A program made the translations under genes and the position numbers. Below, piece by piece: positions 4,548 to 43,987 of a DNA stretch of 64,000 bases. The notes under the pieces are model-generated. The model did not search any database. It was not told where the DNA came from and saw nothing but the letters and a program-made list of their open reading frames with translations. Every line of letters begins with the position of its first letter. Within the stretch, counting starts at the first letter, position 1. Source of the DNA: Thermoplasmatota archaeon (GTDB taxonomy: Archaea > Thermoplasmatota > Thermoplasmata > UBA10834); NCBI GenBank assembly GCA_018818785.1, contig JAHIRF010000005.1, forward strand, positions 139,790 through 203,789. Reading direction: 5' to 3'.

Positions 4548-6626
4548 TCATGTTTGAGGCGGTGGGGCCTCCTCTCCCTTGTCGCCATTCTTCCTGATCA
4601 TGGTCACGTAGAGCCCGATCAAGATCGCCGCACCCAATATTCCCCCTATCAGACCCATGATGAATCCTGACAAGCTGATGTCATCACCTTCAGAACTCGA
4701 TTGGTTCTCAACATCTCCAATTCTGTCCACCGTCTCATCAAGCAGGTCCTGGGTGATATTGAGCGACTCGCTAATGGAAGCCAAAGAGATCAGTAGTGCC
4801 TCTAGTTCCGCATCAAACGCTGATTGATTGTCATCTGCACTGTCAAGGCCAACATATAGCTCCTGAATGTCATCTCGCACAGCAGCGAGGCCATCGGATA
4901 GTTCGTCGAGGGAGGCCTGTAGCGTTTCGAGATCGTCCTTGCTAGCATTCAGATCCGACCATATTATGGTCATGTCCGCGACGATCCTTCCGAGATCTTC
5001 TTCCAGAGCAATCAGTTCAGTCCACAGCTCGGGTACTGGATTCTCGTAAGTGATCGTGATGCTTACACTGCGCGAGTTTCCTGAAATGTCCTCTGCGGTC
5101 ACCATGATGGTGTTTTCGCCCTCCGAGAGCGCGAGGTTCATCGAGAATGCACCGGTCAGATCATCCACAGCTGCAATCAAGCCACCGATTGAGAGGGTTG
5201 CTCCAGGCTCTGTAGTCCCGGATACGGTGATGGTCGGTGTGTTGGTGGTGGCGCCCGAAATCGGCTCATCGACAGACAGTGCGGGAGGGGTGACATCCGG
5301 TGCTAGATAGGTATTGACTCCCGCTCTCTGGGTTATTCCATCATGCTGCAACCATATGGCGATGGTCGTTCCCGCACCACCTGAGGCGACATCCGGCAGC
5401 TCTCCCTGTCCCATGAACTCCTCGATGAGCTCTGGCTCACCCCAGCCAATACTGGTCGTATACAAATTCGCATAGACGCTGTAGCGGTAGCCATCGAACT
5501 GTGTCCAGACTGCCACTGCGCCCCCCTTATCATTGAGGGAAATCGCAGGAGTGCCGGCGTTATTGTCGTTCTTCTCAATCAGTTCCGCCGTGCCCCATCC
5601 TGAACTTGGAGTGTATCGATTCGCATGGATGTTGTTCCGTATACCATCCGATTGGGACCAAACGGTGATAGCGTTCCCGTCATCGTCCGTTCCGACGTCC
5701 CAGGCGAGGACGTGTCCCGTATCATCATTCTCGACGAGCTCTGGTTCACCCCAACCATCTCCGGCGACGTACCTGCACGCCAATAGACTGGCGGTCGTGC
5801 CGATCAACTCCTGCCAGACGACGGTGGCATTACCTCCTTCATCCATGGCGATTCTCGGATTTCCCGCAGTCCCGTCATACACATCCTCTACGAGATGTGC
5901 GGTTCCCCACCCTTCACCGATTTTATATTCATTCGCCCAGGCCTCGTAAATGGGGCTAGCCCAGACCTTCCAGACCACCACGGCATTGCCCTTTCCGTCC
6001 ATGGCTATCTGCGGGTAGCTGGGGTTCCCAGGGTAATCGTCTCCAATGATCTCCGTTGGTCCCCACCCCTCACCCTGGACGTACCTACTTGCGGTCACGT
6101 TGACGTGGTAACTATCGAACTGCGTCCAGACTGCGATCATATTATCTTCTCCATCTGTCGCAACAGACGGGCGAACACCTGATGCGGATGAGGCATCCTG
6201 CACGACTTCAGGTGTACTCCAACCCATGCCTGGTCGGTACTGGCTCGAGTATATCCAATAGGGCCCCACATTCTGACTCCACACGATAGTCACATTGCCA
6301 TTGGTGTCTGCAGCAATTGCAGGCGACTCGAGCAACTCCCACGAACCAAACTCGATGGTGCTTGCATCCGTCCATCCCTTGTCTGCGATGTACCTGCTTG
6401 TCATGACATTGATCGTGCTGACGCCATCGTACTGTCCCCAGACAGCCATGCCATTTCCATTCCCATCAACGACCACACTGGGTGCAGTGCAATAACCTAT
6501 ACCATCGTCTATCAATTCCGCTGTGCCCCAGTCGGATGCGACCTCCGCAGAGGATGGAACTGGTGTCATGAGCGTTCCACAGATTGTGATCAGAGCCAAC
6601 ATTGATACGAGCAACTTCCGACGCAT
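4548..6626 (-). CDS. secreted/surface repeat protein: signal peptide, about 8 tandem beta-propeller-like repeats, Ig-like domain, coiled coil, C-terminal TM anchor
   Basis: Start is set at MRRKLLVSMLALITIC, a signal peptide; the upstream part of the ORF overlaps tRNA-Gly. About 45-aa repeats carry DGNGNxxVVWxQxDG...RY...GWG...ELIE. C-terminal IMGLIGGILGAAILIGLYVTMI helix followed by KNGDKGEE. Confidence 0.6.
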   Translation of the reverse strand: MRRKLLVSMLALITICGTLMTPVPSSAEVASDWGTAELIDDGIGYCTAPSVVVDGNGNGMAVWGQYDGVSTINVMTSRYIADKGWTDASTIEFGSWELLESPAIAADTNGNVTIVWSQNVGPYWIYSSQYRPGMGWSTPEVVQDASSASGVRPSVATDGEDNMIAVWTQFDSYHVNVTASRYVQGEGWGPTEIIGDDYPGNPSYPQIAMDGKGNAVVVWKVWASPIYEAWANEYKIGEGWGTAHLVEDVYDGTAGNPRIAMDEGGNATVVWQELIGTTASLLACRYVAGDGWGEPELVENDDTGHVLAWDVGTDDDGNAITVWSQSDGIRNNIHANRYTPSSGWGTAELIEKNDNNAGTPAISLNDKGGAVAVWTQFDGYRYSVYANLYTTSIGWGEPELIEEFMGQGELPDVASGGAGTTIAIWLQHDGITQRAGVNTYLAPDVTPPALSVDEPISGATTNTPTITVSGTTEPGATLSIGGLIAAVDDLTGAFSMNLALSEGENTIMVTAEDISGNSRSVSITITYENPVPELWTELIALEEDLGRIVADMTIIWSDLNASKDDLETLQASLDELSDGLAAVRDDIQELYVGLDSADDNQSAFDAELEALLISLASISESLNITQDLLDETVDRIGDVENQSSSEGDDISLSGFIMGLIGGILGAAILIGLYVTMIRKNGDKGEEAPPPQT

Positions 6627-6721
6627 TGTCTCCCCATAAGGGCAATGGCTACACTGACTAAATCCCTTTGCAGGGCAACCCTGAAGACGAAATGAATTCT
6701 CTGGACGAAGAAGCATAGGAG

Positions 6722-6793
6722 TGCGGCTGCCGGGATTCGAACCCGGGCTTGAAGCTTGGGAAGCTTCAGTCCTAACCACTAGACTACAGCCGC
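6722..6793 (-). tRNA. tRNA-Gly (anticodon CCC)
   Basis: Reverse complement folds as a 72-nt cloverleaf: acceptor GCGGCTG/CAGCCGC, anticodon loop TTCCCAA, T-arm CCGGGTTCGAATCCCGG. Confidence 0.85.
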
Positions 6794-6850
6794 TTGTATT
6801 GCACGAATGTGGCATTTTGATTTAAACATATCCGAGCGGAAGGCGGTCTA

Positions 6851-7816: not shown

Positions 7817-8161
7817 CTATTCCTTCTGCTCTTCCTCAACATCGACCTTGATCTTGCCTCTTTCCTTGAATGTGGTGACGACCATGAAGGTCTTGGTCTC
7901 CTTCACACCGTTTATGTCTGCGACATCGTCGACTATGAACTTCTTGAGTGCTCCATAATTAGGGAACCTTGCCTTCGCGAAGATATCCGTGTCTCCTGTG
8001 ACCAGGAATACATCCTCGACATGGTCGAAGGACGCGATCTTCTCCGCGACATCGTCGGACCCCTTCGTGTCGATCTTGAAGCTGATCAGGGCCGTGACCT
8101 GTTCTTCTCCATAGTACGTCGAGATGATCTCCTCGTACTCCTTCTTGTCTTTATCTTCCAT
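7817..8161 (-). CDS. stand-alone Lrp/AsnC C-terminal (RAM) ligand-binding domain protein
   Basis: RAM-domain pattern (VFLVTGDTDIFAKARFPNYGALKKFI). No N-terminal HTH is present. Confidence 0.55.
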   Translation of the reverse strand: MEDKDKKEYEEIISTYYGEEQVTALISFKIDTKGSDDVAEKIASFDHVEDVFLVTGDTDIFAKARFPNYGALKKFIVDDVADINGVKETKTFMVVTTFKERGKIKVDVEEEQKE

Positions 8162-8844
8162 GTCTTCGCCCCCCGATCGAGGATGCCTCTATCCGCGTGG
8201 TGCGGTTATCCGAGCTCAGGCGCCCTTAGGGTCAACAAGAGCCTTATCCTCGGCATTCCCGGAAGGGACTGCTTTGATAAGGGTCGGTACGAGCCCGATG
8301 TTACAGGCGTGCGCCTTCGAATTCCTCTTGGAGGTCTATGATCACCTGTTCAAGGATCTCCTCCAAGCTGGCGCTCCTGTACTCTCTCATTCCACCAAGG
8401 TCACTCTGAACTCTTGCAACATACGATGCGTTGCTCTTCAGAAACTCAACGTTGCACAAGGGCTCTTCCATCCGTGTTCACCCCATCTGGCCCAGGCACC
8501 ACCCGAGGCCATGGTTAGCGCGCTGGTGCGCCATATATCCTCTATTATTTAGACCTTTCTTAAAATGCTTCCGGTCACCCGACTAGCCAGAAAGCGATCT
8601 GACGCGAGTCCAGGTCGGATGATGGGGCCGTCAGGCCTGATCCACCCCCCAAAAAACATGCCATCCCTGATTGGTTTACAATGTCCAAGTTCGACCAATG
8701 CCAGCAACCAAGTATTATATATCGCGGCGACCGTAATCCCCAAATCGATGAACTCGGCAGCCAATAGCCTTATCATAATTATAGGCTGATTCTTGCCCCC
8801 ATTGCCGAGTTTGTATTAGAGGCCTTTTGGAGGGATTTGTTGTC

Positions 8845-11800
8845 ATGAAGAAGTACTACCGAGAACCTGCCGGCGAGACCTTTTCCGGCATAGAAGAGGA
8901 GGTTCTCTCTCTCTGGGAGCGGGAGGGCATGCTGCTCGAGGTCAGGGAGCGGATGCGCAACGGTATCCCGCTGTACTTCTGCGAAGGTCCGCCGACCGCT
9001 AAGAGCCCACCCCATTTCGGGGACGCGCTCACGCGCGCGGTTAAGGACGCGTTCCTCAGATTCCACATAATGAACGGTCGAAAGGTCCTGCCCTACATAG
9101 GTGGTTGGGACTGTCATGGACTTCCAGTCGAGCTGGAGGTCGAGAGGTCTCTAGGGCTGGAGTGCAAGGAAGATATCGAGCGATACGGGATCGAACTCTT
9201 CAACGCACGATGTCGCGAGAGCGTCCTCCGTTACAAGGGCGATTGGGAGGAGATGAGCCGTAGGGTCGGCTACTGGATCGATTTCGAGAACGCCTACATG
9301 ACCATGTCTAACGAGTACATTGAGAGTGTATGGTGGTCCGTCAAACAATTGCATTCGAAGGGATTGCTGGTCAAGGACAAACAGGTCGTCCCTTACTGCC
9401 CACGGTGCGGGACCACCCTGAGCACGCACGAAGTGGCCTTGGGGTTCGGCGAGGTCGAGACCAGATTCGTCGTCGCCCGCTTCAGAATCGACACGTTAGA
9501 TGCCAGCGCTCTGGTCTACACCGAGACACCATGGACCCTAGTGGCGAACGCCCTGCTCGCGGTCGATGGAAACCAACGATATGTGCTTATCGAATCATCG
9601 GGCGAGAGGTTACTCCTGAGCGACCGTAGCTCGAGGGCATTGTTGCCTTCATGCAAGGTGCTTCGCACCTTCTCAGGCACGGAGCTGGTCGGTCTATCCT
9701 ATGTTCCACCGTTCGATTACTCGGGGCGGCCCAGCGATTCGTTCAGGATCGTTCATTCCGACGAGGTCACCAAAGAGGAGGGCACCGGGATAATGCACGT
9801 GTGCCCTGCCTGCAGCTCGATAGATTTCGAGATATCAGCGGCCGAGGGACTCGAATTGTTCGATCCGGTCGACGATACCGCAAGGTTCACACAGAAGATC
9901 CCCGAACTCGCTGGCAAGTCGGTCACAGGTTCGAGCACCGAAGTGATACGAATGCTCGAGGGTTCAGGGTCGTTGTTCAAATGGGGTCTGATGAAACGGT
10001 CATCACCTTTCTGCTGGAGGTGTCAGACCCCGCTGATCTACAAGCTTAGGGACGCCTGGCTCATAAAGGCATCAGATGTGAAGGACGAGATGTCTCGATT
10101 GAACGAGAAGATCCGATGGGTGCCTGAGACCTTCCAGGACCTCAGGTTCGGAAACTTCATCGCTGACGCCAAAGACTGGGCCGTTAGCCGGAGTCGGTAC
10201 TGGGGGACTCCGCTGCCCATCTGGAGGTGCACGGAGGGCCACGAACATTGCGTGGGTTCGGTCCAGGAGCTAAGGGAGATGTCTGAGCTCCCGGTTCCAG
10301 ATGGATTGGACCTGCACCGTCCCTTCGTGGATGATATCACCCTGAGGTGCCCACAATGTGGCAAGAGCATGAAGCGTGAGGAATTCGTCCTTGACTGCTG
10401 GTACGATTCCGGGTGCGCGCCATTCGCTCAACATCACTACCCGTTCGAGAACAAGGATGCGTTCGATTCGCACAGGTCTTTGGATTTCATATCGGAATCG
10501 GTGGACCAGACTCGTGGGTGGTTCTACACACAGCATGTGCTGAGCACCCTGCTGTTCGATGCCCCTGCGTTCACTTCCGTTCTGGTGATGGGCAACGTGC
10601 TAGGTGCCGATGGGAAGAAGATGAGAAACGTGCACAAGAACACGGTATCGCCGTCAGAGGTGTTCTCATCCATCGGTGCGGATGCATCAAGATTCTATCT
10701 CTTGGGAAGCCCGACATGGGAATCCATTCAATTCTCAGAGGAGGATGTGAGGAAGACGATGGTCGGCACGCTCAAGACGCTCCTTAATGTCTACGCCTTC
10801 TACGCTTCCAATGCCAACGCCTATGGTTACACTGGCCAGGATGCCGAAGCCAAGACACACGACCTGGACACGTGGATCCTCTCCAGATTGAACACTACCA
10901 TAGTTGATGCCAGAAACGGGTTCGACGACCTCGAGGTCCATTGGGCGGTGAACTCTATCATGAAGTTCGTAGAGGATTTGAGTAATTGGTATGTTCGCAG
11001 ATCCAGGCGCAGGTTCTGGGTCGATAGCGATCCGCTCGACCGCTTCTCCGCGCATTCCACGCTCCACGAATGCCTCATGACATTGTCCATGATAATGGCC
11101 CCGATCACACCTTTCTTCGCGGACTGGCTCTACAGAAATCTGAAAGGGGCAAAGGGGAGCGTGCATCTCGAGGACTATCCGGTCTCGGGCGAGGAACATT
11201 CCAACAGACCGCTCGAACTGCAGATGTCCGTTGTTCGGAGGGCGGTGGAAGCTGGCCGCCTGGCCCGTCAGAACGCTAACATCAAGCTGAGGCAGCCGCT
11301 AGAGGAGGTCGTGATAGCCGCCAGCAGAGACGATGTCTGGACGCTACGCAGATATGAGAAGATGATCTCCGAGGAACTGAATGTCAGATCTGTGAAGTGC
11401 ATGGAATCTCGGGAGAGCATGGTGGAGTATGCCATATCGGCGAACCTCAGGACCCTTGGCCCGAGGTTCAAGGAAGGGGCCGAAGAGGTTTCGAAGCTGC
11501 TAGAGATGGTCGACGGCAGCGAACTGGTGAAGCATCTGAAGGCGAAGGGAAGGCTGCGCCTGGGAGGTTACGACCTCTACGAGGAGGATGTCATCATCAG
11601 CGAGACGCAGAAACCAGGATACACCCACGCATCGATGGATGACCTGCACGTCTACTTCTCGACCCAGATCAACACGAAGCTCAAGATGGACGGCCTGGCG
11701 AGAGAGGTCATCAGGCGCGTCCAGCACATGCGCAAGGCGCAGGGCCTGGCCTTTGACGACCTAGTGGTCGTGGAGTATTCGGCCCATCCGGACATCGAAG

Positions 11801-11937
11801 CCGCTATCGTCGCCCACAAGTCGCGCCTGGAGACGGAGACGCATGCGAAATCCTATTCGAAGGCCACCTCACTCCAAGGGGCCAAGAAGTGGACGGTCAA
11901 CAAGATGCCACTAGAACTGGTGGTCAGGATACTTTGA
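8845..11937 (+). CDS. ileS: isoleucyl-tRNA synthetase with atypical HIGH and KMSKS signatures
   Basis: Full-length class-I IleRS. GWDCHGLPVE, the editing-domain TPWTL motif and a Zn-knuckle CPRCG/CPQCG are present. The GGAGGG Shine-Dalgarno favours ATG 8845 over the TTG at 8827. HIGH reads PPHFGD and KMSKS reads KMRNV. Confidence 0.85.
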   Translation: MKKYYREPAGETFSGIEEEVLSLWEREGMLLEVRERMRNGIPLYFCEGPPTAKSPPHFGDALTRAVKDAFLRFHIMNGRKVLPYIGGWDCHGLPVELEVERSLGLECKEDIERYGIELFNARCRESVLRYKGDWEEMSRRVGYWIDFENAYMTMSNEYIESVWWSVKQLHSKGLLVKDKQVVPYCPRCGTTLSTHEVALGFGEVETRFVVARFRIDTLDASALVYTETPWTLVANALLAVDGNQRYVLIESSGERLLLSDRSSRALLPSCKVLRTFSGTELVGLSYVPPFDYSGRPSDSFRIVHSDEVTKEEGTGIMHVCPACSSIDFEISAAEGLELFDPVDDTARFTQKIPELAGKSVTGSSTEVIRMLEGSGSLFKWGLMKRSSPFCWRCQTPLIYKLRDAWLIKASDVKDEMSRLNEKIRWVPETFQDLRFGNFIADAKDWAVSRSRYWGTPLPIWRCTEGHEHCVGSVQELREMSELPVPDGLDLHRPFVDDITLRCPQCGKSMKREEFVLDCWYDSGCAPFAQHHYPFENKDAFDSHRSLDFISESVDQTRGWFYTQHVLSTLLFDAPAFTSVLVMGNVLGADGKKMRNVHKNTVSPSEVFSSIGADASRFYLLGSPTWESIQFSEEDVRKTMVGTLKTLLNVYAFYASNANAYGYTGQDAEAKTHDLDTWILSRLNTTIVDARNGFDDLEVHWAVNSIMKFVEDLSNWYVRRSRRRFWVDSDPLDRFSAHSTLHECLMTLSMIMAPITPFFADWLYRNLKGAKGSVHLEDYPVSGEEHSNRPLELQMSVVRRAVEAGRLARQNANIKLRQPLEEVVIAASRDDVWTLRRYEKMISEELNVRSVKCMESRESMVEYAISANLRTLGPRFKEGAEEVSKLLEMVDGSELVKHLKAKGRLRLGGYDLYEEDVIISETQKPGYTHASMDDLHVYFSTQINTKLKMDGLAREVIRRVQHMRKAQGLAFDDLVVVEYSAHPDIEAAIVAHKSRLETETHAKSYSKATSLQGAKKWTVNKMPLELVVRIL

Positions 11938-12406
11938 CCCTCTTCTTCGGTCCCTTGGATATCGATTTCTCCATCATGTATGCGTGCTTCTTGGCGCCGT
12001 AATAATCTTTCGCCATGGTCTTCAGAACATACCCGTGTTTGAGGTATAGGCTGATGGCCGGGGTGTTCTCTATGCCGACCTCGAGGCCACACCGGCGAAC
12101 CCCCAGGACAATCATCTTTTTCTCGCATTCAATCAATAGGCGCGAAGCCAACCCCTTCTCGCGTCTGCCATCCAGGACTGCGATGGATGCGATGCGTCCT
12201 TCCCCGCACCTCTTCGAGAACATGCACATGGCTGCCCCTACGATCATCTGTTCATCGACCGCGACCAATGCGATGGTATCGTTCCTGACGATGAATGCGG
12301 TGACGGTCTCCTGCTCGAACCGTCTCTCATCGAAACATTCCGCCTCCAAGCGCATGATGCCTGGTAGGTCTTTCATGGTGGCGATCCTCACCTTCACAGA
12401 TGGCAT
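11924..12406 (-). CDS. GNAT N-acetyltransferase (RimI-like)
   Basis: IRIATMKDLPGIMRLE at the N-terminus and an acetyl-CoA motif RREKGLASRLL. Start set at the internal ATG 12406, because the longer ORF overlaps the asnS start. Convergent 14-nt overlap with the ileS 3' end. Confidence 0.6.
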   Translation of the reverse strand: MPSVKVRIATMKDLPGIMRLEAECFDERRFEQETVTAFIVRNDTIALVAVDEQMIVGAAMCMFSKRCGEGRIASIAVLDGRREKGLASRLLIECEKKMIVLGVRRCGLEVGIENTPAISLYLKHGYVLKTMAKDYYGAKKHAYMMEKSISKGPKKRVKVS

Positions 12407-12479
12407 ACAACACTGCTTCGATATGTTCGTTGCGCTTCTTCCGAAGGGCTTATATTCGCCATGGGACTTCAGCATCTGG

Positions 12480-13769
12480 ATGGTCTCCATAAAGAACGCC
12501 GTCTCAGAAAAAATGGTAGGCAAGACTGTCCAGGTACGTGGATGGGTCTACCGCACCAGGAGCAGCGGCGGTATCGCTTTCGTCGTCATGCGTGATTCGA
12601 CGGGCATAGCCCAGGTCACTGTGAAGAAGGGTTCTGTCCCGGATGAGGACTTCGTCTCAGCCACCGATAACGGTATCGAGTCCTCGGCCATAGTCGAAGG
12701 GACCGTCGCGGAGGACAAGCGCGCACCGGGTGGCTATGAGATACGCGCAAGTCGGTTCATTCTGGTAGGAAAGGCCGAGCCGTTCCCAATCACTGAATAT
12801 CAAAGCACCGAGCTTCTGCTGGACCTGAGGCATCTATGGATCCGATCCCGGGAACAAACCGCGATCATGAGGATCAAGGATTCGCTTCTAAGGGGAGCAC
12901 GCAACTGGTTCCATGAGAACGATTACACCGAAGTGACACCCCCTATCATAACAGGGGTCGCTGCAGAGGACAGTACCAGCCTGTTCCAGATAAAGTACTT
13001 CGACAGGATAGCGTTCTTATCACAAAGTGCACAGTTCTATCTGGAATCGCTCATATTCTCGTGCGACAAGGTTTGGGCCCTCACCCCATCTTTCAGAGCG
13101 GAGAAGTCGAGAACCCCCAGACATTTGGCGGAATTCTGGCATCTCGAGATGGAAGCAGCCTGGCTGACGAACGAGGAGAACATGCAGGTGCAGGAGCAGA
13201 TGGTGACCGCCATGCTGCACAATGTGGCGGACGAATGTCCCGACGAGCTCGCGATGTTCAAGCGTGACCCAGCGGCCCTGAAGAAGATCGTGCCACCGTT
13301 CGATAGAATGCCTTACGGAGAGGCCATGCAGTACCTGCAAGGCAAAGGGTTCGACATGTCCTGGGGAGACGACCTGGGCGCAGTCGAAGAGCGCGAGCTG
13401 ACCAAGGATCGCACCATCCCGATGTTCGTGGTGAACTATCCGAAGGAGCTCAAACCGTTCTACATGAAGGAAAACCCGGATGACCCGCGCACATACAAGA
13501 ACAGCGACTTGCTGGCGCCGGAAGGCTTCGGCGAGATCATCGGCGGCAGCGAGAGAGAGACGGACAACGAACTCATCCTCGAGAGATTGCGTGAGAAGGG
13601 CGAACCCTTGGAGAACTACAGCTGGTATCTGGATCTCAGAAGGTACGGGTCGGTCCCGCACTCCGGGTTCGGTCTGGGAACGGAGAGGATCGTAACATGG
13701 ATATGCGGTCTAGATCACATCCGCGACGCGATACCATTCCCGCGCACAGTGTCCAGGGTGTTCCCCTAG
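12480..13769 (+). CDS. asnS: asparaginyl-tRNA synthetase
   Basis: Collinear with archaeal AsnRS: class-II motifs FRAEKSRTPRHLAEFWHLE, GGSERE and GFGLGTERIVTW. The ORF-track N-terminal extension from 12015 is rejected. Confidence 0.85.
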   Translation: MVSIKNAVSEKMVGKTVQVRGWVYRTRSSGGIAFVVMRDSTGIAQVTVKKGSVPDEDFVSATDNGIESSAIVEGTVAEDKRAPGGYEIRASRFILVGKAEPFPITEYQSTELLLDLRHLWIRSREQTAIMRIKDSLLRGARNWFHENDYTEVTPPIITGVAAEDSTSLFQIKYFDRIAFLSQSAQFYLESLIFSCDKVWALTPSFRAEKSRTPRHLAEFWHLEMEAAWLTNEENMQVQEQMVTAMLHNVADECPDELAMFKRDPAALKKIVPPFDRMPYGEAMQYLQGKGFDMSWGDDLGAVEERELTKDRTIPMFVVNYPKELKPFYMKENPDDPRTYKNSDLLAPEGFGEIIGGSERETDNELILERLREKGEPLENYSWYLDLRRYGSVPHSGFGLGTERIVTWICGLDHIRDAIPFPRTVSRVFP

Positions 13770-17115: not shown

Positions 17116-17685
17116 TCAACGATATTGGTCGATCAGCTTCATCATGTCCTTCTCGAGGCCGACGCTCATGGCTGGAGCCTCGATCACCTCTACGTTCCTC
17201 TCAAGAAGCGCCAGCTCCTTCTCGCTGAAGGCGTCGGGGCTTATCGGTATCAGGACCACGGACTTGCTCTGCATGACCTGTTCGTTTATGTGCTCGGCGA
17301 ACCTGAGCACCTGCTGGAACCCGTTGTTTATGACAAGGTACTCGAGCCCGTCAACGATGACGACGCACCTCTCGTACCTCTCGATGAACGAAGAGATCAT
17401 GGTCGCGAGTGTGCCTATGCTAGTAGGGTTGTGATGGTCCTTGCCTGGGGTGTGGCTCAACCACAGGATGCGCGTGTCGCCCAAGTCGAAAGCCTCCTTG
17501 ACTTTCTCAGGGTACTGACGGGTGACGCATAATCCCGGAATGCTCTCAGAAATCGCGTTTTCAAACAGCCTGTAGGATAGGAAAGGCTTCCGCTCCCTGA
17601 CTACGTAACACATTCCCGCTTCGGGACGGATCAGCTCCATCTGGCTGGAGTTCTTCTCCTCCGAACCGATGTCCTTGTCCTCCAC
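17116..17685 (-). CDS. DUF835-domain protein
   Basis: CVTRQYPEK...RILWLS pattern typical of DUF835. GTG start at 17685, with TATA-like atatataaat about 25 nt upstream, so probably a leaderless mRNA. Confidence 0.45.
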   Translation of the reverse strand: MEDKDIGSEEKNSSQMELIRPEAGMCYVVRERKPFLSYRLFENAISESIPGLCVTRQYPEKVKEAFDLGDTRILWLSHTPGKDHHNPTSIGTLATMISSFIERYERCVVIVDGLEYLVINNGFQQVLRFAEHINEQVMQSKSVVLIPISPDAFSEKELALLERNVEVIEAPAMSVGLEKDMMKLIDQYR

Positions 17686-33889: not shown

Positions 33890-34186
33890 TCATGATTGAA
33901 GTCCACATTCCACCGCAAACTTGAAGCCCTTCCCCTCTTCTTCTTGAACCTTCTTGTAGAAGTCGCAATTCATGCATACGATCACCTTGGGCACGAACGA
34001 TCCCGTGGGTTCTCCTCCACAGAGAGTGCCGGCGACCGCCCAGCATATCCTTCCACCATTCTTCCCATGGTTCATTCCATCCGATCGAGAGTACGTGCAC
34101 GCTGGACATACTCCGCGTTCGGATACCTTGGCTCCTCCAGGGAATCGCTGGCAATCTTTGAACTCCCAACAGTTCTGCACTCCCAT
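33890..34186 (-). CDS. small Cys-rich protein with two CW motifs (10 Cys in 98 aa)
   Basis: MGVQNCWEFKDCQRFPGG...GVCPAC...GGRICWAVAGTLCGG...CMNCDFY. GGTGAGG Shine-Dalgarno 3 nt upstream of ATG 34186. The longer ORF to 34588 overlaps the antisense transposase fragment and is rejected. Confidence 0.45.
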   Translation of the reverse strand: MGVQNCWEFKDCQRFPGGAKVSERGVCPACTYSRSDGMNHGKNGGRICWAVAGTLCGGEPTGSFVPKVIVCMNCDFYKKVQEEEGKGFKFAVECGLQS

Positions 34187-34324
34187 TTCCTCACCACTCC
34201 CAAACGTGCTTCGGATAGAGCACGGTCCGGAGCATGGAATGACGGTACATTTCTGATAAGTCTTGCCATGAATCGGTCTGGAATGCGAAAGCATTGATAC
34301 GCCATCTGAGAGCCATAGAACGGC

Positions 34325-34687
34325 ATGCCGAGTTATCCCAACAAGACTATCAAGAAGGAGCTCGGGAGTTTCAAGCGCAAGGGTGATATGCCTTCGGGCA
34401 TCAAGCAGTACACGCTTCACAAGATCTTGCCTAGCATCCGCGCAGAGAAGTCGAATGACAAGAATGAAAGACTTCACGGCACGGAGAAATCGAGAACCAA
34501 GATCATGAGGGCATTCGACCACGAAGCGGGAGCGTCTGCTTTGATGGACGGATGGAGGGTTCATTACGATATGATTCGGACTCATCAAACGCTCGTCATG
34601 ACACCAGCCGAAGCCGCTGATATTCCGTCATTGCCAGGCTTCAAGTGGTATGAACTAATAAAGCTGGCTAGCAGGCAAAGCTCTTGA
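34325..34687 (+). pseudogene. truncated IS6-family transposase (C-terminal about 75 aa only)
   Basis: NERLHGTEKSRTKIMRAFDHEAGASALMDGWRVHYDMIRTHQTLVMTPAEAADI aligns with the C-terminus of the full transposase at 37891-38880 (IERFHNTLKDRVKILRGFGSRGGASTALDGFVIQYNFLRRHTSLKGMTPAERAGI). Confidence 0.55.
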
Positions 34688-34762
34688 ATATCAGAAAATG
34701 AAATTTAGAGGCAAAAATCATATATAGTGCGATTCAATAGTGGGTAACATAAAATCCCCAGT

Positions 34763-35473
34763 ATGACCCTTCTCTTCACGAAAAGGGGAATGCTGGGTTC
34801 CACTTCTTCAATCATAATCTCCTGGAGGAATGATAAATCGGACGCTATCATATTCATTGATGGAAACAATTTCTATCACAACTCACGATCAATGGGAATT
34901 AAGCCTGGGAGCATAGATTTCGATAAGCTCATCAATTTCATCTGTTTAGAGTTCAAATGCAATAGAAAGCAAGTTCGTTACTACAATTCTGAACCAGATA
35001 TTTCGGATGGAACGAAGAAATATTACGGTGCTCAGAAATTCTTCAGCGAACTAAAAAAGCTCGGTTTTATCGTTCAGACGAGAAAACTCCAGAAGCAATC
35101 AAACGAAAAAGAGATCAATGCAAGGATTAAGGTCATTGATGACGAGGAATATTGTCCTATATGCAGACCACTTGTTGAGAATGCATGTATTCAATGCGTG
35201 GGTCGATTCAGCAAAAAGGAAAAGGGCATTGATGTTTGGATAGCCATTGATATGCTAAATCTTTGTCTGTTGCGTAATGAATGCGATATGTGTATATTAG
35301 TGTCGGGTGATGGTGATTTTGTTCCCGCCCTGGATATTATCAAGGGATCTGGCAAGGAGGTTGCATCCACATCCGTATACCATGGATATTCGAATCTCCT
35401 GAGAGAGAAACATAGATTCAAGACAATAACAGAACAGGAACTCGAAGGACTCTTGAAACAAGATCGTTTTTGA
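34763..35473 (+). CDS. NYN/LabA-like domain protein (predicted RNase fold)
   Basis: Motifs IFIDGNNF, GIDVWIAIDML and ILVSGDGDFVPAL. Region looks AT-rich. Confidence 0.6.
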   Translation: MTLLFTKRGMLGSTSSIIISWRNDKSDAIIFIDGNNFYHNSRSMGIKPGSIDFDKLINFICLEFKCNRKQVRYYNSEPDISDGTKKYYGAQKFFSELKKLGFIVQTRKLQKQSNEKEINARIKVIDDEEYCPICRPLVENACIQCVGRFSKKEKGIDVWIAIDMLNLCLLRNECDMCILVSGDGDFVPALDIIKGSGKEVASTSVYHGYSNLLREKHRFKTITEQELEGLLKQDRF

Positions 35474-35670
35474 CTAATGCACTCAGACTCGCCACCATCC
35501 GAAGATTTACAGCGGAAAACGTCAGACGGAAACCACCCGTTAATTAGACAGAACCGAGACCAAGGGCATTGTTGCATTAAGTATGATTCAGTAGATGTCT
35601 CCGAAATGCTTGTCTGACGATTCATATGGCCAGTCGTCGGAATATTGTGAGCCCTCATCATGTCACATTC

Positions 35671-36273
35671 TCATTTCAGAGGAACTAGTAGCCACCGATC
35701 ATGATTAAGGAAGGGCACGAAGATGTTGCCACCGCTGTCTCTGTTGGCCAAATACGTATGAATCCCGATTTGGTTCAAGGACAGATGCATGAATCGTTCT
35801 ATGTAGAATTCCCAGGGTCTCTCCGATGTCGTCCTTGGTTCCTTTTCCAGGAGCTTTAGGGCGGTCTCAGAGCAGTCTTGCAGGTATTTCATGAAGATTG
35901 GCCAACCTTCTTGTCCAAATCCATCTCCCTTTTCTTTGCTGCCCTCTTCTCCAGTATAATCATCACCCGGTTTTCCATGTGCTCCGAAATGTGGTGACGG
36001 ATCGCTGATGCCCTTCAATCTTTCTTCGAGCTCGATTCTGATTTCTGCAATATCTGAATCGACCCCATAAAACCTCAATCTGATCTCTGGAGTTTTCGGT
36101 TCCAAGACTGGGCATTCTTCTCTTAGAAAATGCCATCTCATGTCCTGCCTACGCTCTTGCGCACGTTCCTTTACCTCATTCACATAGTTTTTCACAAAGC
36201 CAAGCAGGACTCTATCGAAATCCCCCGCATTTCTCAGATGGATATTTACCTCAACCCACTTGTATTCACTCAT
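35671..36273 (-). CDS. hypothetical protein
   Basis: No confident family. ATG 36273 (MSEYKW...) preferred over the GTG at 36282. Confidence 0.4.
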   Translation of the reverse strand: MSEYKWVEVNIHLRNAGDFDRVLLGFVKNYVNEVKERAQERRQDMRWHFLREECPVLEPKTPEIRLRFYGVDSDIAEIRIELEERLKGISDPSPHFGAHGKPGDDYTGEEGSKEKGDGFGQEGWPIFMKYLQDCSETALKLLEKEPRTTSERPWEFYIERFMHLSLNQIGIHTYLANRDSGGNIFVPFLNHDRWLLVPLK

Positions 36274-36352
36274 TTGAACCACCTACGGTCATGAATGCGT
36301 CTGCTGATAGATTATCATTCTTATCTGGGCCAGTCAAATCTGAACGCGGCAC

Positions 36353-36730
36353 TCAACATTCTTCAGGCCAAGGTGTCGATGTTATTCCCTGCATCTTGCG
36401 CATTTCCTTATGGTTCCCAACCCACCAGCAAATTATCGTATTCTTGGGAACCTCATTGCAGGGGCATCTATGCTTGGTCTGATGAATAGTCCCTATGCAT
36501 TCCCAGCAGAGAGTCACGATTATTCGGAGGTCTTTTAGGACCTTTATCTCCCTATCGCCAGCCAGGCCCGCAGTGAGTGGGTAAGTGAAGTGTTTTGGAT
36601 TCTCAAGAACCTTCTTCAATTTCTTCTCGATAGCGCTACGCGCTATGGGGTCACCAATACATTTGAGACATTCCTTGAATTTTGGATGAAAAAGAAAAGA
36701 TGGTGGTTCATTCGGACTCAAAGACTTCAC
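36353..36730 (-). CDS. RelE/ParE-like toxin-fold protein with a Cys/His-rich C-terminus
   Basis: About 125 aa. FKECLKCIGDPIARSAIEKKLKKVLENPKHFTYPLTAGLAGDREIKVLKDLRII resembles a RelE/YafQ-type fold. GTG start overlapping the upstream Panacea gene. Confidence 0.35.
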   Translation of the reverse strand: MKSLSPNEPPSFLFHPKFKECLKCIGDPIARSAIEKKLKKVLENPKHFTYPLTAGLAGDREIKVLKDLRIIVTLCWECIGTIHQTKHRCPCNEVPKNTIICWWVGNHKEMRKMQGITSTPWPEEC

Positions 36731-37394
36731 TCCATGTCAGGAGTTCCTTTGCCTTAAATGGTGTCTCCAGCGTTTCTCTGATCTCTGGGTATCTGTATGA
36801 GAACATGAGATCCAGAGTTCGTATCCATTCTTTAGGAATCTCAAATTCGTAACTGACATCCCGCAGCTTGATCGGATTGAGCAATGGGGTACCATCTGGT
36901 ATGTCGTCTATCTTTGCCGTCGAGTCTCTATAGGGAACTTGGCATCTGTGACTCAGATCCCTCAATTCCCTACCAGTATACTCTCCAAGATGGTGAATCC
37001 AACCACTTAGATGGTCGATTATTGGGGCGTTCTCTCCCGAATCAATGAACTCAGACATCTGGGAGACAAGCTCTTTCCCTTCCTTTGTTATCGCCTCGAT
37101 AGCTTTGTTCTGACCTTTTAACTCTACGAATCCAATCTGGTTAAAGAGGTCAAGGTCCTTGACAATCTCAGCACTCATCGGTCCATGTGTCCATTTAAAG
37201 AATTGGTAATTGATTCCTTTTATCCGCTTTACCTGAGCATCGTACTGATTGAAAAACGCGGTCTTCTGAATTTTCCATTTATCCAAAGTGCCATATTCAG
37301 AAAGCCCATTCATTGTGTACAATAACAGCACTTTGTTTATAATCTCATCAACCTCTGCGAGGTCGTCCATCTCACCCTGCTCGACGCTTATCAT
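36708..37394 (-). CDS. Panacea (DUF4065)-domain antitoxin-like protein
   Basis: KVLLLYTMNG...KWTHGPMSAEI matches the Panacea pattern (KLLYfa...hGPv). Co-directional and overlapping with the downstream toxin-like gene. Confidence 0.5.
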   Translation of the reverse strand: MISVEQGEMDDLAEVDEIINKVLLLYTMNGLSEYGTLDKWKIQKTAFFNQYDAQVKRIKGINYQFFKWTHGPMSAEIVKDLDLFNQIGFVELKGQNKAIEAITKEGKELVSQMSEFIDSGENAPIIDHLSGWIHHLGEYTGRELRDLSHRCQVPYRDSTAKIDDIPDGTPLLNPIKLRDVSYEFEIPKEWIRTLDLMFSYRYPEIRETLETPFKAKELLTWSEVFESE

Positions 37395-37890
37395 TCCTAT
37401 CCGTCCAAACGACTATCTATTCCATCAAATTCTCACTTTCACGGGTGCCAATGTTAGCTAGTATAATATGATTTTGATATGTCATTCAGCGATATTAAGC
37501 TTGCCGACTGACGCATTCATAATGATTTCATACCGGGATTTTTTGTATGCTGGCTAACAAATTCTAGAAATGAGAACGCGGCTCAAATCATTCGATAGAC
37601 TGAAACGACTTGTTTTCGACGACCCCACACTTCAGCTCGGGCTAGAGGATTTCGGCCTGGCTGGGGATAGCTACTTATACAACACGCACCAATTAGGGTA
37701 TATTGAGGGTGCAAATAACCCCTCTTGGATGGGACGGTATGGAAGTAACGATACCCGATGCCGACATAGTGATCGAGGCCGGAGTAACGGAAGATGGCCG
37801 GATATACGGCCTCAAGAAGTACGCTGGCCGTACGGTCAAGATTGTCGTGCTAGAGGAGAAACGGAAGAAGTAAATCGACACCAAACAACA

Positions 37891-38880
37891 ATGGGTGACT
37901 GGGCCGGAGGTTGCCGCCTCCGCCCAGTCGGGAGGCCCGATACCTTGAATATCAGACCCCCAGAGAATCACATCAAGCTTGAACCGAATAAGACTTTCGC
38001 AGGTAGGACCGAAACTGGTCATGTAGGATGCAAGTTCTGCAAGAGCCACCAGGTCGTCAAGAATGGCAAGCGTGGCGATAAGCAGCTCTACAAGTGCAAA
38101 TCATGTGGCAAGCAATTCGTAGACAATGAATGCTTTCCGAGGATGCGCACCAGTGCACGAGCAATCTCCGTCGCTCTCGAAGCCTATTTCGATGGTCTCT
38201 CACTCGCTAAGGTCGTCAATCTTCTGAGGCGCGTGTATGGAATCACCATAAACAGGGCGACAGTCTGGAGGTGGATTCAGAAGTACGTTCCTTTGGTCAA
38301 GAAGATGATGGGCCAGTTCACCGCCAATGCAACTAGTTCATGGCACGCAGATGAGACTGCAGTGAAGATCAAGGGAAATATCCATTGGTTCTGGGATGGC
38401 ATCGATTATGATACGCGCTTCATCGTGATGGGTTTGCTCACTCGAAGACGTTCTGTCTCTAACGCTCGCAAGTTCTTCATTGGAGCCAAGGCACAAGTGG
38501 GCGGAAAGGCTCCTGGAGTCATAGTGACTGATGGCTGTGGCTCCTATCGGAAGGGTGTCACAAAGGCGTTCTGGAGAAAGGTCCAGCTTGGAGAATGCAC
38601 TCTTATCCAGAAAGCTGGGTTAAGGGCTAGGTTGGGTAAGCTCTCCAACAATGTGATCGAACGATTCCACAACACCCTCAAAGACCGTGTCAAGATTCTA
38701 AGAGGATTCGGGAGTCGAGGTGGCGCATCAACTGCCCTTGACGGATTCGTGATTCAGTATAACTTTCTTCGAAGGCATACCTCATTGAAAGGTATGACTC
38801 CTGCAGAAAGGGCTGGAATCAGACTACCGACCGTGATGGGATGGGGCGACCTCATACAGTGGTCTCTGAAGCGTTCATAG
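37891..38880 (+). CDS. IS6-family DDE transposase with N-terminal Zn-finger
   Basis: DDE region HADETAVKIKG...WFWDGIDYDTRFIV matches the IS6 DETyvKvnG...YlyRAVD pattern. N-terminal CKFC...CKSC zinc ribbon. The ORF-track extension from 37570 is low-complexity and probably non-coding. Confidence 0.6.
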   Translation: MGDWAGGCRLRPVGRPDTLNIRPPENHIKLEPNKTFAGRTETGHVGCKFCKSHQVVKNGKRGDKQLYKCKSCGKQFVDNECFPRMRTSARAISVALEAYFDGLSLAKVVNLLRRVYGITINRATVWRWIQKYVPLVKKMMGQFTANATSSWHADETAVKIKGNIHWFWDGIDYDTRFIVMGLLTRRRSVSNARKFFIGAKAQVGGKAPGVIVTDGCGSYRKGVTKAFWRKVQLGECTLIQKAGLRARLGKLSNNVIERFHNTLKDRVKILRGFGSRGGASTALDGFVIQYNFLRRHTSLKGMTPAERAGIRLPTVMGWGDLIQWSLKRS

Positions 38881-38897
38881 TGCAATAGTGCAGATAC

Positions 38898-39770
38898 TCA
38901 CTTAGGTTTTCTGAAATGCATCATGTTGTGATGTTGATGGTTTATTCTGTATGCATATGGGTATCCGAAAGGGAACAATGGCTTGACGGGCTGGAGCAAC
39001 ACAACGGTCCCTGAGAACTCGTAACCAATCTTCTCCATCATTGGCACTATGTCTGCCTGGACGCATTTCTCCTTCTTCTTCACCGTGAAGTCGCTCATTA
39101 TGAGAGTGCAATATCTACCGTTCCTAAGCCTGGAGAAGGTCTTCGACATGATGTCCGAGAGAGACTGAATGAACCCACTGTACTCATCGATATTGCCCAA
39201 GTCGTTCTTTCTGTCAGTGTAGCAGGCTACACCTTCTCTCGCCCCCATGCGATACAGTTTCCCATTGTGCTGTCGTATCCCCTTTCCATTGTTCTTGAGG
39301 ATGTTATGGTAGGGCGGAGAGGTCACCACGTAGTCGACCATTGGCACATTATCGAGTTTCTTCAGGGAGTCGCCGATGATATACTCGTATTCTTCTAGAT
39401 CTCTCGACCTCAGTCTCTTCTGGGCAATCTTCTTGTAGTCTGCATTTATGTCAATTCCTATTGCTTTTCGTCCTACCTGGTTGGAGGCAAGCAGTGTCGT
39501 TCCGCTCCCAGCGAACGGGTCAAGCACCGTCATCCCTTTCTTTGTGAACAACTCGACAAGTCTTTGAATATCCCTGACGAGAAATGGTGCGGGATGACTG
39601 TAGGCTTCCTTGTCGTCTGCGCAGCCAACAGATTGCCAGAAGCTGCCGGATAGTAGGAGCCAGTCACGTCCTGACAGATTGTTCAGCTTATTCCTAATAT
39701 CATATTTGCCAGGCTTGTTCTCCTCCGACAGGGGCTTCCTCGGGTTCTTCTTCTCGGTTGTACTCTTCAT
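38898..39770 (-). CDS. site-specific DNA methyltransferase (N6A/N4C, PF01555-like)
   Basis: Motif I VLDPFAGSGTTLLAS and motif IV TSPPYH. 4-nt overlap with the upstream large methyltransferase gene. Confidence 0.75.
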   Translation of the reverse strand: MKSTTEKKNPRKPLSEENKPGKYDIRNKLNNLSGRDWLLLSGSFWQSVGCADDKEAYSHPAPFLVRDIQRLVELFTKKGMTVLDPFAGSGTTLLASNQVGRKAIGIDINADYKKIAQKRLRSRDLEEYEYIIGDSLKKLDNVPMVDYVVTSPPYHNILKNNGKGIRQHNGKLYRMGAREGVACYTDRKNDLGNIDEYSGFIQSLSDIMSKTFSRLRNGRYCTLIMSDFTVKKKEKCVQADIVPMMEKIGYEFSGTVVLLQPVKPLFPFGYPYAYRINHQHHNMMHFRKPK

Positions 39771-42136: not shown

Positions 42137-42468
42137 CGGAGGACGAACATCTTCAACGAGAGCGTAATTGATGTGCGTCACTGCGAAATCAGTTTCCTGC
42201 TGCCCAATCAATTCTTGCCACCTCTCTGTATCCAGTTGAGGATGGCCTCTTCGACCGCAGCCTTGATGTCGCCCTTCTTAAAACCGCCAGACCGTTTGTA
42301 GATCTCGTCACGCAGAGCTTTGTCGACCTCGTGGGAAATCTCAACCTTGGTCAAGTTATCGCAGATGTATGCACGTAAGTACTTATGTACTTTGGTACTT
42401 TAGTTCCTAAGTGTCTGTAACCGGAGCCCTGCGCGTTGATGGGTGTGTTACCGAAGGTAGGACACATC

Positions 42469-42951
42469 TCATCTTCGTGGCTGGTAAACCTTCTTATGAT
42501 AACCATTTCGTCTGAAGAGCTTATATGCTCGCGTGTAGACGTTTCGCCAATCACCCTTGCTCAGGTCCTTGTAGTGACAATTGAGGCCCCGTCTCGTCTT
42601 TGAAGCGATATAGTCTAGACAGCGATGACCATAGGCGATTCTCACATAATCGGTTGCAGTTTCTGGGCGAATTCCTATCGAGCCGACAAAACCGTCAATC
42701 ATGTCGCGTATCCCCTCAGGAGAATGCCAATAATCGAGGTCACGATGGTCTGGGCCAAATTTCTTTGCGTTCTTGTCCATTCTTCTATGAACGCTCGTTC
42801 CGTCAGTATCCTCGTATATCACTCCGTTCTTCACGAGGCGTTTCTCATCAAAATCTAGATGATAGTCCAGAGATGGCACCATTTCCACCCGGAGGCATAG
42901 ATGCCCCTTCGGCCTATTGATGATATTGCAGATCCCATCTGTTAGAGTCAA
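42469..42951 (-). CDS. hypothetical protein
   Basis: Protein-like composition, no recognisable motif. 4-nt overlap with the upstream ORF suggests co-transcription. Confidence 0.35.
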   Translation of the reverse strand: MTLTDGICNIINRPKGHLCLRVEMVPSLDYHLDFDEKRLVKNGVIYEDTDGTSVHRRMDKNAKKFGPDHRDLDYWHSPEGIRDMIDGFVGSIGIRPETATDYVRIAYGHRCLDYIASKTRRGLNCHYKDLSKGDWRNVYTRAYKLFRRNGYHKKVYQPRR

Positions 42952-43544
42952 GAACTCCGAGGTTCCCGCTCTTTCTCCCGCTTTCCAACAATTTTCATCA
43001 GCTGAGGGATGTCCTTCTCCACCCTGGCCGATAGCTTTTCAATTGCCTTCATTACAGGTCTGATTTCAAATGTCGAATTCAAGAATACGACGGTCATCGT
43101 GGGAGCATCGAAGAAGCCAAAATGAGGTGCATTGAGGGGCAGCATCGTGTGCTTCTGGAAATTCACTCCCCCTCTCCTGAAGCCAGGGTTGGCCTTCATC
43201 CACTTGTCGAGCCTTTCGTCGAAGTGGTCGAAATGGTCCCTCATCTTGCGTGAGTTCAACGGGGATGTTTCGAGGATGGAGAATCGCGACTTCAGATGCC
43301 TTGCCCTTTCTTGGCACCTTTCCGATTTGTTAGGTGGCCAGAATGATCTAGAAATACCTGCGGATGAACGGAGCAAAGCCTTCAGACAGAACCAGACCCG
43401 ATCAGCATCTCGAACAGCAATGCTGCACAACAGACCGCGATAAGCCATCTTGGCGTGCAGACAATCGTCTTCCAGTGAGTACTCGAAACCAAGAATCTCC
43501 ATATCCTCCATGCGGTCACCTAATGATGATATGGGATGTCCCAT
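42948..43544 (-). CDS. hypothetical protein
   Basis: No recognisable motif. Sits in the accessory island. Confidence 0.35.
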   Translation of the reverse strand: MGHPISSLGDRMEDMEILGFEYSLEDDCLHAKMAYRGLLCSIAVRDADRVWFCLKALLRSSAGISRSFWPPNKSERCQERARHLKSRFSILETSPLNSRKMRDHFDHFDERLDKWMKANPGFRRGGVNFQKHTMLPLNAPHFGFFDAPTMTVVFLNSTFEIRPVMKAIEKLSARVEKDIPQLMKIVGKREKEREPRSS

Positions 43545-43764
43545 CTCTTAGGATGTATGATTCTGGGCTTCTTCCTTTGGACAAGATCGGGCCTTGGCTC
43601 TCCATCGCTTCCTAGCGGAATCATGGTCATACAACTGAGAACCCTCTCGATTGTCATATGGTTTTGGGCTGCATGTAGGCTACAGGATTGGGCTGTACTA
43701 TCGGCTACCCGCAGTCAATACACTTATATGTGCCACTTGAGTAGAATGCATCCAAGGGAATACC

Positions 43765-43980
43765 GTGAAGTCATACGAAAGAGCAAGGAGCGCCGAAGGG
43801 AAGAAGAGAGAGCCGTACTGCGCCAAGGTGAGCATCGTCGAAACCCAGATGCGAAACATGTGGCCGGATGCGTACTTGATGCCCAGAGAAGCGTACTTGA
43901 TACACCTGCGCATCCTGATTAGCGAGATGACTGCGTTGATAAAGGCGACCGAGGCTGAGATCAAACGAGTAGAAAACTGA
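43765..43980 (+). CDS. hypothetical small protein
   Basis: 71-aa ORF on the strand opposite its neighbours. Weak support. Confidence 0.2.
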   Translation: MKSYERARSAEGKKREPYCAKVSIVETQMRNMWPDAYLMPREAYLIHLRILISEMTALIKATEAEIKRVEN

Positions 43981-43987
43981 TTGGTGG

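Follow-up and report, generated by a model that had tools for sequence, protein, structure and literature searches.

An old and tightly conserved family of IleRS2-type proteins with degenerate HIGH and KMSKS motifs in uncultured Thermoplasmata

The HIGH and KMSKS motifs define the aminoacyl-tRNA synthetases (aaRSs) of class I. Why, then, has an archaeal lineage long kept an isoleucyl-tRNA synthetase (IleRS) of 1030 residues after discarding them? This question is raised by a gene located at 8845..11937 (+) in a 64,000-nt stretch of DNA from a Thermoplasmatota archaeon (GenBank assembly GCA_018818785.1, contig JAHIRF010000005.1), the whole of which is referred to here as the window. The open reading frame (ORF) runs from an ATG at 8845 to a stop codon ending at 11937 and encodes a protein of 1030 aa. 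An earlier note, made from the letters of the window, had read HFGD and KMRNV in the places of HIGH and KMSKS and had considered a paralog with altered or lost aminoacylation, a lineage-specific motif variant or a sequence error. We found that the window protein belongs to an old, tightly conserved and lineage-specific family whose hosts are uncultured Methanomassiliicoccales-related Thermoplasmata. On balance, the window gene appears to be a retained and neofunctionalised paralog derived from a type-2 IleRS (IleRS2), in short a ‘pseudo-IleRS’, standing beside an IleRS-A-like enzyme.

By sequence and predicted fold, the window protein is a full-length IleRS2. It carries the Rossmann/HUP domain, the CP1 editing domain, the anticodon-binding domain and the C-terminal DUF5915 domains, and gave Pfam matches to tRNA-synt_1, Anticodon_1 and DUF5915 (PF19302). 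Its score against TIGR00392, the ileS equivalog of NCBIfam, was 748.3 bits, above the curated cutoff of 621.4 and about 210 bits lower than the scores of a canonical archaeal IleRS2 (P0117, 957.5) and of P0522 (969.7), the motif-intact IleRS described below. The closest solved structure by sequence was Priestia megaterium IleRS2 (PmIleRS2, PDB 8c8v; E 1e-232, residues 17-1011 aligned), with 778 bits against PmIleRS2 compared to 268 bits against PmIleRS1. An AlphaFold2 model obtained with the alignment of the family (hereafter, the clade) as input had a predicted local distance difference test (pLDDT) value of 86.7 over the full length, and the fold that it predicts reached a template modelling (TM) score of 0.92 to full-length PmIleRS2 (8c8v) versus 0.73 to PmIleRS1 (8c9e).

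The end-to-end alignment with 8c8v located both degenerate signatures exactly where they had first been read. In the HIGH loop (aa 49-60, PPTAKSPPHFGD, canonical PPTANGxPHxGH; 8989..9024, +), H57-F-G-D60 (cat ttc ggg gac, nt 9013-9024) lies under HVGH of 8c8v; the invariant Gly54 is lost, a Lys occupies position 53 and the second His has become Asp60. In the KMSKS-equivalent loop (10618..10632, +), K592-M-R-N-V596 (aag atg aga aac gtg) lies under KMSKS of 8c8v, and the catalytic second Lys and both Ser are gone, in agreement with the earlier note, which had reported the second Lys and the Ser as missing. The note had also allowed that the motifs might be misaligned and that intact ones might lie elsewhere in the protein, which the same alignment rules out. 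Its statement that each change is a single-nucleotide step from the canonical codon holds for D60, R594 and N595 and fails for V596 (GTG), which is at least two steps away from any Ser codon.

A search of 5.8 billion proteins retrieved 114 relatives of the window protein at 56-97% identity, after which identity fell sharply to 45%. All the relatives that have a name come from metagenome-assembled genomes (MAGs) labelled Thermoplasmata, Thermoplasmatota or ‘Methanomassiliicoccus sp.’. When HMMER was run exhaustively on 1.84 billion representatives clustered at 50% identity, the whole clade was contained in one representative (1821 bits) and the next one scored 1144 bits; because of this gap, the clade can be regarded as a discrete, isolated family without intermediates. 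Of the 149 best representatives besides that of the clade, only two were without the second KMSKS lysine, GTGxVHxAP was present in all and WTTTPWT in all except P0361. The canonical representatives nearest to the clade profile came from Asgard and mixed lineages and gave no pointer to a second copy. As a separate observation, the two without the lysine, P0361 (KMSKS reading RMSQS, HIGH loop PLTAHAQPTAHH, editing motif WTAAPWT) and P0386 (KMSKS reading KMSSS), both outside the clade, may be further independent degenerate IleRS copies.

We compared the motifs of the clade, over 115 representatives unless another n is given, with those of a canonical set of 120 archaeal IleRS2 that are 51-100% identical to P0117, Aciduliprofundum included. 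The canonical proteins kept HxGH and KMSK[ST], no position having more than a single exception, and the pattern of the window protein is thus far removed from what chance would produce. In the clade, the KMSKS loop was degenerate in every relative (KMRNV, AMRPS, VIRSS, KITKD, KMERD, etc.), with a column entropy of about 3 bits, and the position of the second Lys, which is K in 120/120 canonical sequences, was K in 15/115, R in 45/115 and some other residue in 55/115. As for HIGH, 66 of 112 clade sequences read HxGH, 24 read HxGD and the other 22 had diverse sequences, SIAD, DMSD, QIRH, APGH and NVEN among them. HxGD was found in none of the 120 canonical IleRS2, in none of 120 IleRS-A-like proteins and in none of the library representatives with HIGH displayed. 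The Gly preceding HIGH, invariant in canonical IleRS2, was never kept in the clade, and a K or R fell within positions 52-55 in 111/125 of the clade sequences versus 7/121 canonical ones. This basic residue is K53 in the window protein, and other sub-clades have R54 or R55. Degeneration of the motifs has gone furthest in the window's own sub-clade, where HIGH also reads SIAD, DMSD, DIGD, QIRH and APGH, and within two 90%-identity clusters the loop changes faster than the remaining protein. A lineage-specific motif variant is a fair description of the family, and goes no further than description.

The gene is not a decaying one. Between the window gene and a 92%-identical relative (L092), the ratio of nonsynonymous to synonymous substitution rates (dN/dS) was 0.095 at a dS of 0.40 and was similar in every domain, indicating strong purifying selection. 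GWDCHGLP (aa 87-94; 9103..9126, +) is invariant in the clade and contains D89, the Asp that we take, from the structural literature on Thermus thermophilus IleRS, to bind the amino group of isoleucine. The second half of the isoleucine/adenosine pocket, W519...E551-x-x-D554-Q555-T-R-G-W559-F-Y (10399..10527, +), is likewise clade-invariant, with D554 conserved at 0.94, so that the list of invariant residues comprises G48, P49, P50, GWDCHGLP, W519, E551, Q555 and RGWFY. The zinc knuckles (C185/C188/C390/C393 and C502/C505), which the earlier note had reported together with GWDCHG, are also present and clade-invariant. In addition, invariant, clade-specific cysteines surround the pocket (C46 and C524, with C90 and C518).

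Conservation extends to the residues that read the tRNA. We mapped the tRNAIle readers of yeast IleRS, taken from the paper on the IleRS-tRNAIle structure (PMC11685878), onto the window protein through an alignment with yeast IleRS 8wnd. R718 and R721 of the anticodon-binding domain (10996..11007, +), equivalent to yeast R736 and R739, which read C32/A35/U36, are invariant in 115/115 representatives, as are R808 and N648, equivalent to yeast R838 and N660. Q960...R963 in the last C-terminal domain (11722..11733, +), equivalent to yeast Q996 and R999, which read the wobble position N34, are invariant in 115/115 too. When conservation in the clade was expressed as a ratio to that in canonical IleRS2, the two Rossmann halves gave 1.06 and 1.00, the anticodon-binding domain 1.22 and the C-terminal domains 1.48, compared to 0.84 for CP1, the least conserved large domain, and 0.49 for the KMSKS loop. 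The C-terminal domains have also gained clade-invariant basic residues (R835, K839, R856, R903 and R905).

The editing site of CP1 has followed a different course. Alignment of the clade showed that in the window protein the Thr-rich motif (aa 225-231; 9517..9537, +) reads YTETPWT where the canonical motif is WTTTPWT, and that the second editing motif (aa 313-327; 9781..9825, +) reads GTGIMHVCPACSSID (canonical GTGxVHxAPAxGxxD), with His318 and Asp327 retained. The editing His is also retained in the window's sub-clade as a group. Family-wide, it is kept in 19/115 members and lost in 96/115. Of the Thr residues in WTTTPWT, the second survives in 9 members and the last in 51, and the editing Asp (D327) is found in 113/115. 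The constraint on the editing site is thus relaxed across the family. The TPWTL that had been reported is there, in a site that is not fully canonical, and the initial description of the protein as otherwise well conserved has to be corrected for this relaxation.

Does a motif-intact IleRS accompany these proteins? A third deep IleRS clade, archaeal IleRS-A, has been described in a preprint (10.64898/2026.02.03.703510). One library representative, P0341, carried an IleRS1-like PPYTTGSIHIGTAWNK motif and had in its cluster a member named Thermoplasmata archaeon, and a homology search from P0341 led to P0522, a protein of 1382 aa (L088:10001-14149). The locus of P0522 (504,748-528,896) and that of clade member P0024 (1,528,505-1,551,603), which is 62% identical to the window protein, lie on the same contig of 1,975,906 bp (ena:ERZ25039515:contig_27509), that is, about 1 Mb apart in a closed genome of 1.98 Mb. 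P0522 has HIGT, AMSKS, WTTTPWT and VHIAPGHGPED as motifs; among its relatives H[LIVM]GT, which has Thr in place of the last His, and WTTTPWT were found in 120/120 and xMSKS in 118/120. Compared with the window protein, P0522 stands relatively nearer to IleRS1; it carries a PPYTTGxIHxGT...NK motif and ends in an HhH + DUF835 extension that is shared by about 70 relatives from Methanomassiliicoccales, Methanomassiliicoccus sp. and Thermoplasmata. In these roughly 70 proteins (with examples in L089, L093, L094 and L124), the extension measures 300-450 aa; it contains HhH repeats, in some cases zinc ribbons as well, and a DUF835 domain that is strongly conserved.

The relatives of P0522 descend in identity through 0.96, 0.86 and 0.79-0.72 and those of P0024 through 0.99, 0.96, 0.87 and 0.79-0.72, and such parallel ladders are as expected if both types of gene were co-inherited, each with its own conserved synteny. 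A scan of metagenome contigs with P0522 showed a P0522-like gene and clade member P0105 co-occurring in sample Ga0256868 and no clade gene on the same contig as a P0522 match. Three clade members are located on contigs longer than 1.4 Mb, and closed clade genomes besides that of P0024 are CP070748.1 and a contig of 1.42 Mb. Canonical IleRS2 genes, searched with P0117 as the query, shared none of the large clade contigs, a result that speaks only to an Aciduliprofundum-like copy. A scan of genome contigs with the clade alignment, through the universal peptides GWDCHGL and DQTRGWFY, returned among the matches listed IleRS2 of at most 42% identity and no clade genome. The paralog with altered or lost aminoacylation proposed in the earlier note is therefore favoured, with the reservation that the pairing with an intact enzyme is seen in a relative: in the one genome tested, that of P0024, the clade protein is not the single IleRS. 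From its orthology and synteny with P0024, we infer that the window's own organism has a second enzyme as well.

Taken together, the loss of the motifs and the retention of the pocket and of the tRNA readers point to a non-canonical and probably non-catalytic role. We propose that Ile-tRNAIle would be made by the IleRS-A-like enzyme with the HhH-DUF835 tail, encoded elsewhere on the chromosome, and that the IleRS2-derived copy, once freed from charging, could lose the residues by which the phosphates of ATP are held during the transition state of activation. These losses would have affected the KMSKS loop family-wide and, in the window's sub-clade, the second and sometimes the first His of HIGH, and the constraint on post-transfer editing would have been relaxed too. 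Selection would meanwhile retain the isoleucine/adenosine pocket, the readers of the tRNAIle anticodon loop and the C-terminal RNA-binding domains with their new basic residues. The paralog might then dock tRNAIle or Ile-tRNAIle through the anticodon, and its former synthetic site would hold either isoleucine or the isoleucyl-A76 end, with no ATP-dependent activation involved. Our confidence differs among the parts of this proposal. The window protein is very probably not the housekeeping synthetase; judging from its residues, its sub-clade has likely lost isoleucine activation, and the paralog probably still binds isoleucine and tRNAIle. A specific role as a sensor, a regulator or a tRNA-handling factor can be put forward only tentatively.

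Several points weigh against a neofunctionalised paralog. The second IleRS has been seen in one genome only, that of a 62%-identical relative, and the surroundings of the gene are of the core housekeeping type (AsnRS/AspRS, Dph6-like, Cdc6, ribosomal L1/L10/L12), where a primary ileS might be expected. A K or R occupies the position of the second Lys in 60/115 members and HxGH persists in 66/112, so parts of the family may still activate isoleucine weakly. Moreover, 89% of the clade has a HIGH-loop K/R in place of the invariant Gly, which resembles the compensation described for arginyl-tRNA synthetase (ArgRS) and by that analogy could mean that catalysis is retained. An active enzyme would likewise show an invariant amino-acid/adenosine pocket, and the role of sensor or handler is a tentative proposal. 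The main alternative is that the protein is a working second IleRS without the KMSKS lysine, in which K53, R54 or R55 of the HIGH loop would stabilise the transition state and Asp60 might recruit Mg2+. The widespread basic residue, the invariant pocket and tRNA readers and the strong purifying selection all fit such an enzyme. So does the fact that IleRS2 with a rearranged HIGH (G/AXHH) shows near-normal kinetics (PMC10485003), and the HxGT of the IleRS-A-like enzymes of the same archaea implies that the fourth position is not absolutely required; in ArgRS, by analogy, a HIGH-loop lysine would functionally replace that of KMSKS. However, the basic residue wanders among positions 53, 54 and 55 and is absent in about 10% of the sequences, close relatives of carriers included; SIAD, DMSD, DIGD, QIRH and APGH in the window's sub-clade are hard to fit to a shared ATP-phosphate chemistry; in two 90%-identity clusters, the loop outpaces the remaining sequence; and a motif-intact IleRS is present in the genome tested. 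We thus hold a working second enzyme to be possible although unlikely. An unlikely variant to which we give slightly less credit is a paralog with new chemistry, which would use Ile-tRNAIle as a substrate or signal and move or sequester the isoleucyl group without ATP, possibly with the involvement of the pocket cysteines C46, C90, C518 and C524, or which would charge tRNA independently of KMSKS.

The remaining explanations fare worse. If the co-residence seen for P0024 did not extend to the window's sub-clade, the window protein could be the sole IleRS of its organism. The housekeeping neighbourhood agrees with this; no second ileS was found within the 64-kb window, and no shared assembly, sample or contig joined the window's species to a candidate partner gene in look-ups that covered contigs and samples, not whole genomes. 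Nevertheless, a sole enzyme is improbable, given that motif degeneration is strongest in the window's sub-clade, that synteny and orthology with P0024 are clear and that IleRS-A-like proteins occur widely among Methanomassiliicoccales-related MAGs. Still a little less credible is an editing-only protein, as suggested in the earlier note, that is, a free-standing Val-tRNAIle deacylase with CP1 acting in trans and the tRNAIle readers used for targeting. This would suit the window's sub-clade alone, in which His318, Asp327 and most of TPWT are retained along with the invariant tRNAIle readers. For the whole family we reject it on account of the loss of the editing His and the relaxation of the Thr-rich motif described above; besides, no other large domain is as poorly conserved as CP1, the IleRS-A-like enzyme in the same genome brings an intact editing site of its own, and the invariant synthetic-site pocket would be left unexplained. 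Finally, the probability of a sequencing or assembly artefact or of a decaying pseudogene is close to nil. Although three of the four departing motif residues are single-nucleotide steps, the seven members of the window's 90%-identity cluster, all from independent assemblies with contigs of up to 455 kb, read HFGD and KMRNV (7/7). The frame is open across 1030 aa and the family exceeds 110 members, with degeneracy clade-wide, so that the sequence error considered at the outset is refuted, and the dN/dS of 0.095 rules out a pseudogene.

The neighbourhood of the gene is kept across the clade down to 58% identity. The order is Dph6-like, UPF0147, stand-alone RAM domain, 56-aa ORF, IleRS-like, GNAT, Asp/AsnRS, M20, M42, GcvT, DUF835, Cdc6 and ribosomal L10/L1. 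Upstream, and always divergent in the clade loci examined, lies a gene for a stand-alone Lrp/AsnC ligand-binding (RAM) domain protein of 114 aa without a DNA-binding domain (7817..8161, −). Branched-chain amino acids are frequent ligands of small RAM-domain proteins, and a functional link between this protein and an isoleucine-binding pseudo-synthetase is conceivable. Between the two genes, a 56-aa ORF without any family match (8301..8471, −) was identical in size and position in 8/8 clade loci examined, and an Rfam scan detected no RNA element in the 373-nt gap that separates it from the start of the IleRS-like gene. Downstream, a conserved and convergent GNAT acetyltransferase gene (11924..12406, −, the end being taken from the L090 gene call) overlaps the stop codon of the IleRS-like gene by 14 nt, an arrangement kept across the clade, and is followed by a conserved class II Asp/Asn-tRNA synthetase gene identified in the neighbourhood comparison (12423..13769, +). 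The gene context of canonical Thermoplasmata ileS loci is unlike that of the clade loci, which is silent on orthology.

Other features of these loci were recorded. A stand-alone DUF835 protein (window 17116-17685, −) shares 37% identity with the DUF835 tail of P0522; its gene adjoins Cdc6 and neighbours the IleRS-like gene in every clade locus examined. In CP070748.1 (GCA_020348345.1), a closed clade genome of 1.70 Mb, the IleRS-like gene has a gene of the MttB family (trimethylamine methyltransferase-like; L085:1755-3215) at a distance of about 8 kb, which fits a Methanomassiliicoccales-related lineage. Within the window, the G+C content at 34001-44000 is 0.455-0.49, compared to 0.55-0.58 across most of the sequence, and this stretch could be a foreign island. 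A tRNA-Gly(CCC) gene (6721-6793, −) is included in the 5′ part of ORF 4548-6815 (−), which encodes a protein with a glucodextranase-B/Ig-like domain, and the true start of this ORF must therefore be located further downstream.

Automatic annotation labels the window protein ‘isoleucine--tRNA ligase’, and both archaeal phylogenies and quality checks of MAGs rely on ileS as one of their marker genes. In genomes with two ileS-type matches of deeply different origin, one IleRS2-like and one IleRS-A-like, phylogenies, contamination estimates and metabolic reconstructions can consequently be distorted. Beyond annotation, the family offers a natural experiment on the uses of a synthetase scaffold other than charging, be it sensing, tRNA handling or aminoacyl-tRNA-dependent chemistry. 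Should new chemistry or KMSKS-independent charging prove true, no full-length class Ia synthetase would have been shown earlier to operate in the absence of the ATP motifs that define its class. In the searchable literature we found no description of a KMSKS-less IleRS, of an archaeal IleRS pseudo-paralog or of an IleRS-DUF835 fusion. The family is thus undescribed there and the partner enzyme fused to HhH and DUF835 is likewise unreported, although aaRS-like paralogs lacking catalysis are, as such, already known.

How does the window protein compare with known systems? With the IleRS2 of P. megaterium (8C8V) and of the yeast cytoplasm (8WND) it has in common the length, the domain order, the isoleucine pocket and the anticodon-reading arginines. 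It departs from them in the drifted KMSKS, in HFGD at HIGH, in the lost Gly before HIGH, in the relaxed editing site and in the co-residence of a clade member with another IleRS in a relative's genome. The G/AXHH IleRS2 associated with mupirocin hyper-resistance also represent a natural, clade-wide departure from HIGH on an IleRS2 scaffold. In those active housekeeping enzymes both His are kept, although swapped, and KMSKS is intact (PMC10485003), whereas in the window protein a His has become Asp and KMSKS is gone. Genomes with two IleRS genes from different deep clades, such as those of P. megaterium (IleRS1 + IleRS2) and Pseudomonas fluorescens, resemble the genome of P0024; in these bacteria both enzymes are active and the second one confers antibiotic resistance, while here it is the IleRS2-type copy that lacks the signature motifs. 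The partner P0522, for its part, resembles the archaeal IleRS-A clade (10.64898/2026.02.03.703510), with an IleRS-A-like motif and a position nearer to IleRS1.

A parallel to the clade's HIGH loop would be ArgRS. Sekine and colleagues reportedly showed in 2001 that an ArgRS lacking the KMSKS lysine is compensated by a lysine of the HIGH loop. The likeness lies in the lost KMSKS lysine and in the basic residue that takes the position of the conserved Gly shortly upstream of HIGH; the compensating Lys of ArgRS is fixed and conserved in what is the sole enzyme, unlike the residue of the clade, which moves among three positions and is sometimes absent. The 2001 paper is cited in PMC8975779 and PMC8318970. 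Cyclodipeptide synthases have a class I aaRS-like Rossmann fold without the ATP motifs and use aminoacyl-tRNA (PMC4066775). Here the likeness is purely conceptual, in that the aminoacyl pocket is kept and HIGH/KMSKS are not: these synthases, derived from class Ic, are small proteins of a single domain that have a catalytic Ser, and neither a residue of this kind nor a product cluster can be discerned in our case. Precedents for an aaRS fold that remained under selection after losing its ATP signatures, with a functional copy alongside, are HisZ, which resembles HisRS and regulates ATP-PRT, and trypanosomatid TyrRS, whose C-terminal pseudo-monomer has ARAVL instead of KMSKS (PMC8319005). HisZ has lost tRNA binding and the TyrRS case is one half of a single molecule. 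What is unusual about the window protein, by comparison, is that it is free-standing and full length and that it has retained the editing domain together with all the residues that recognise the tRNA.

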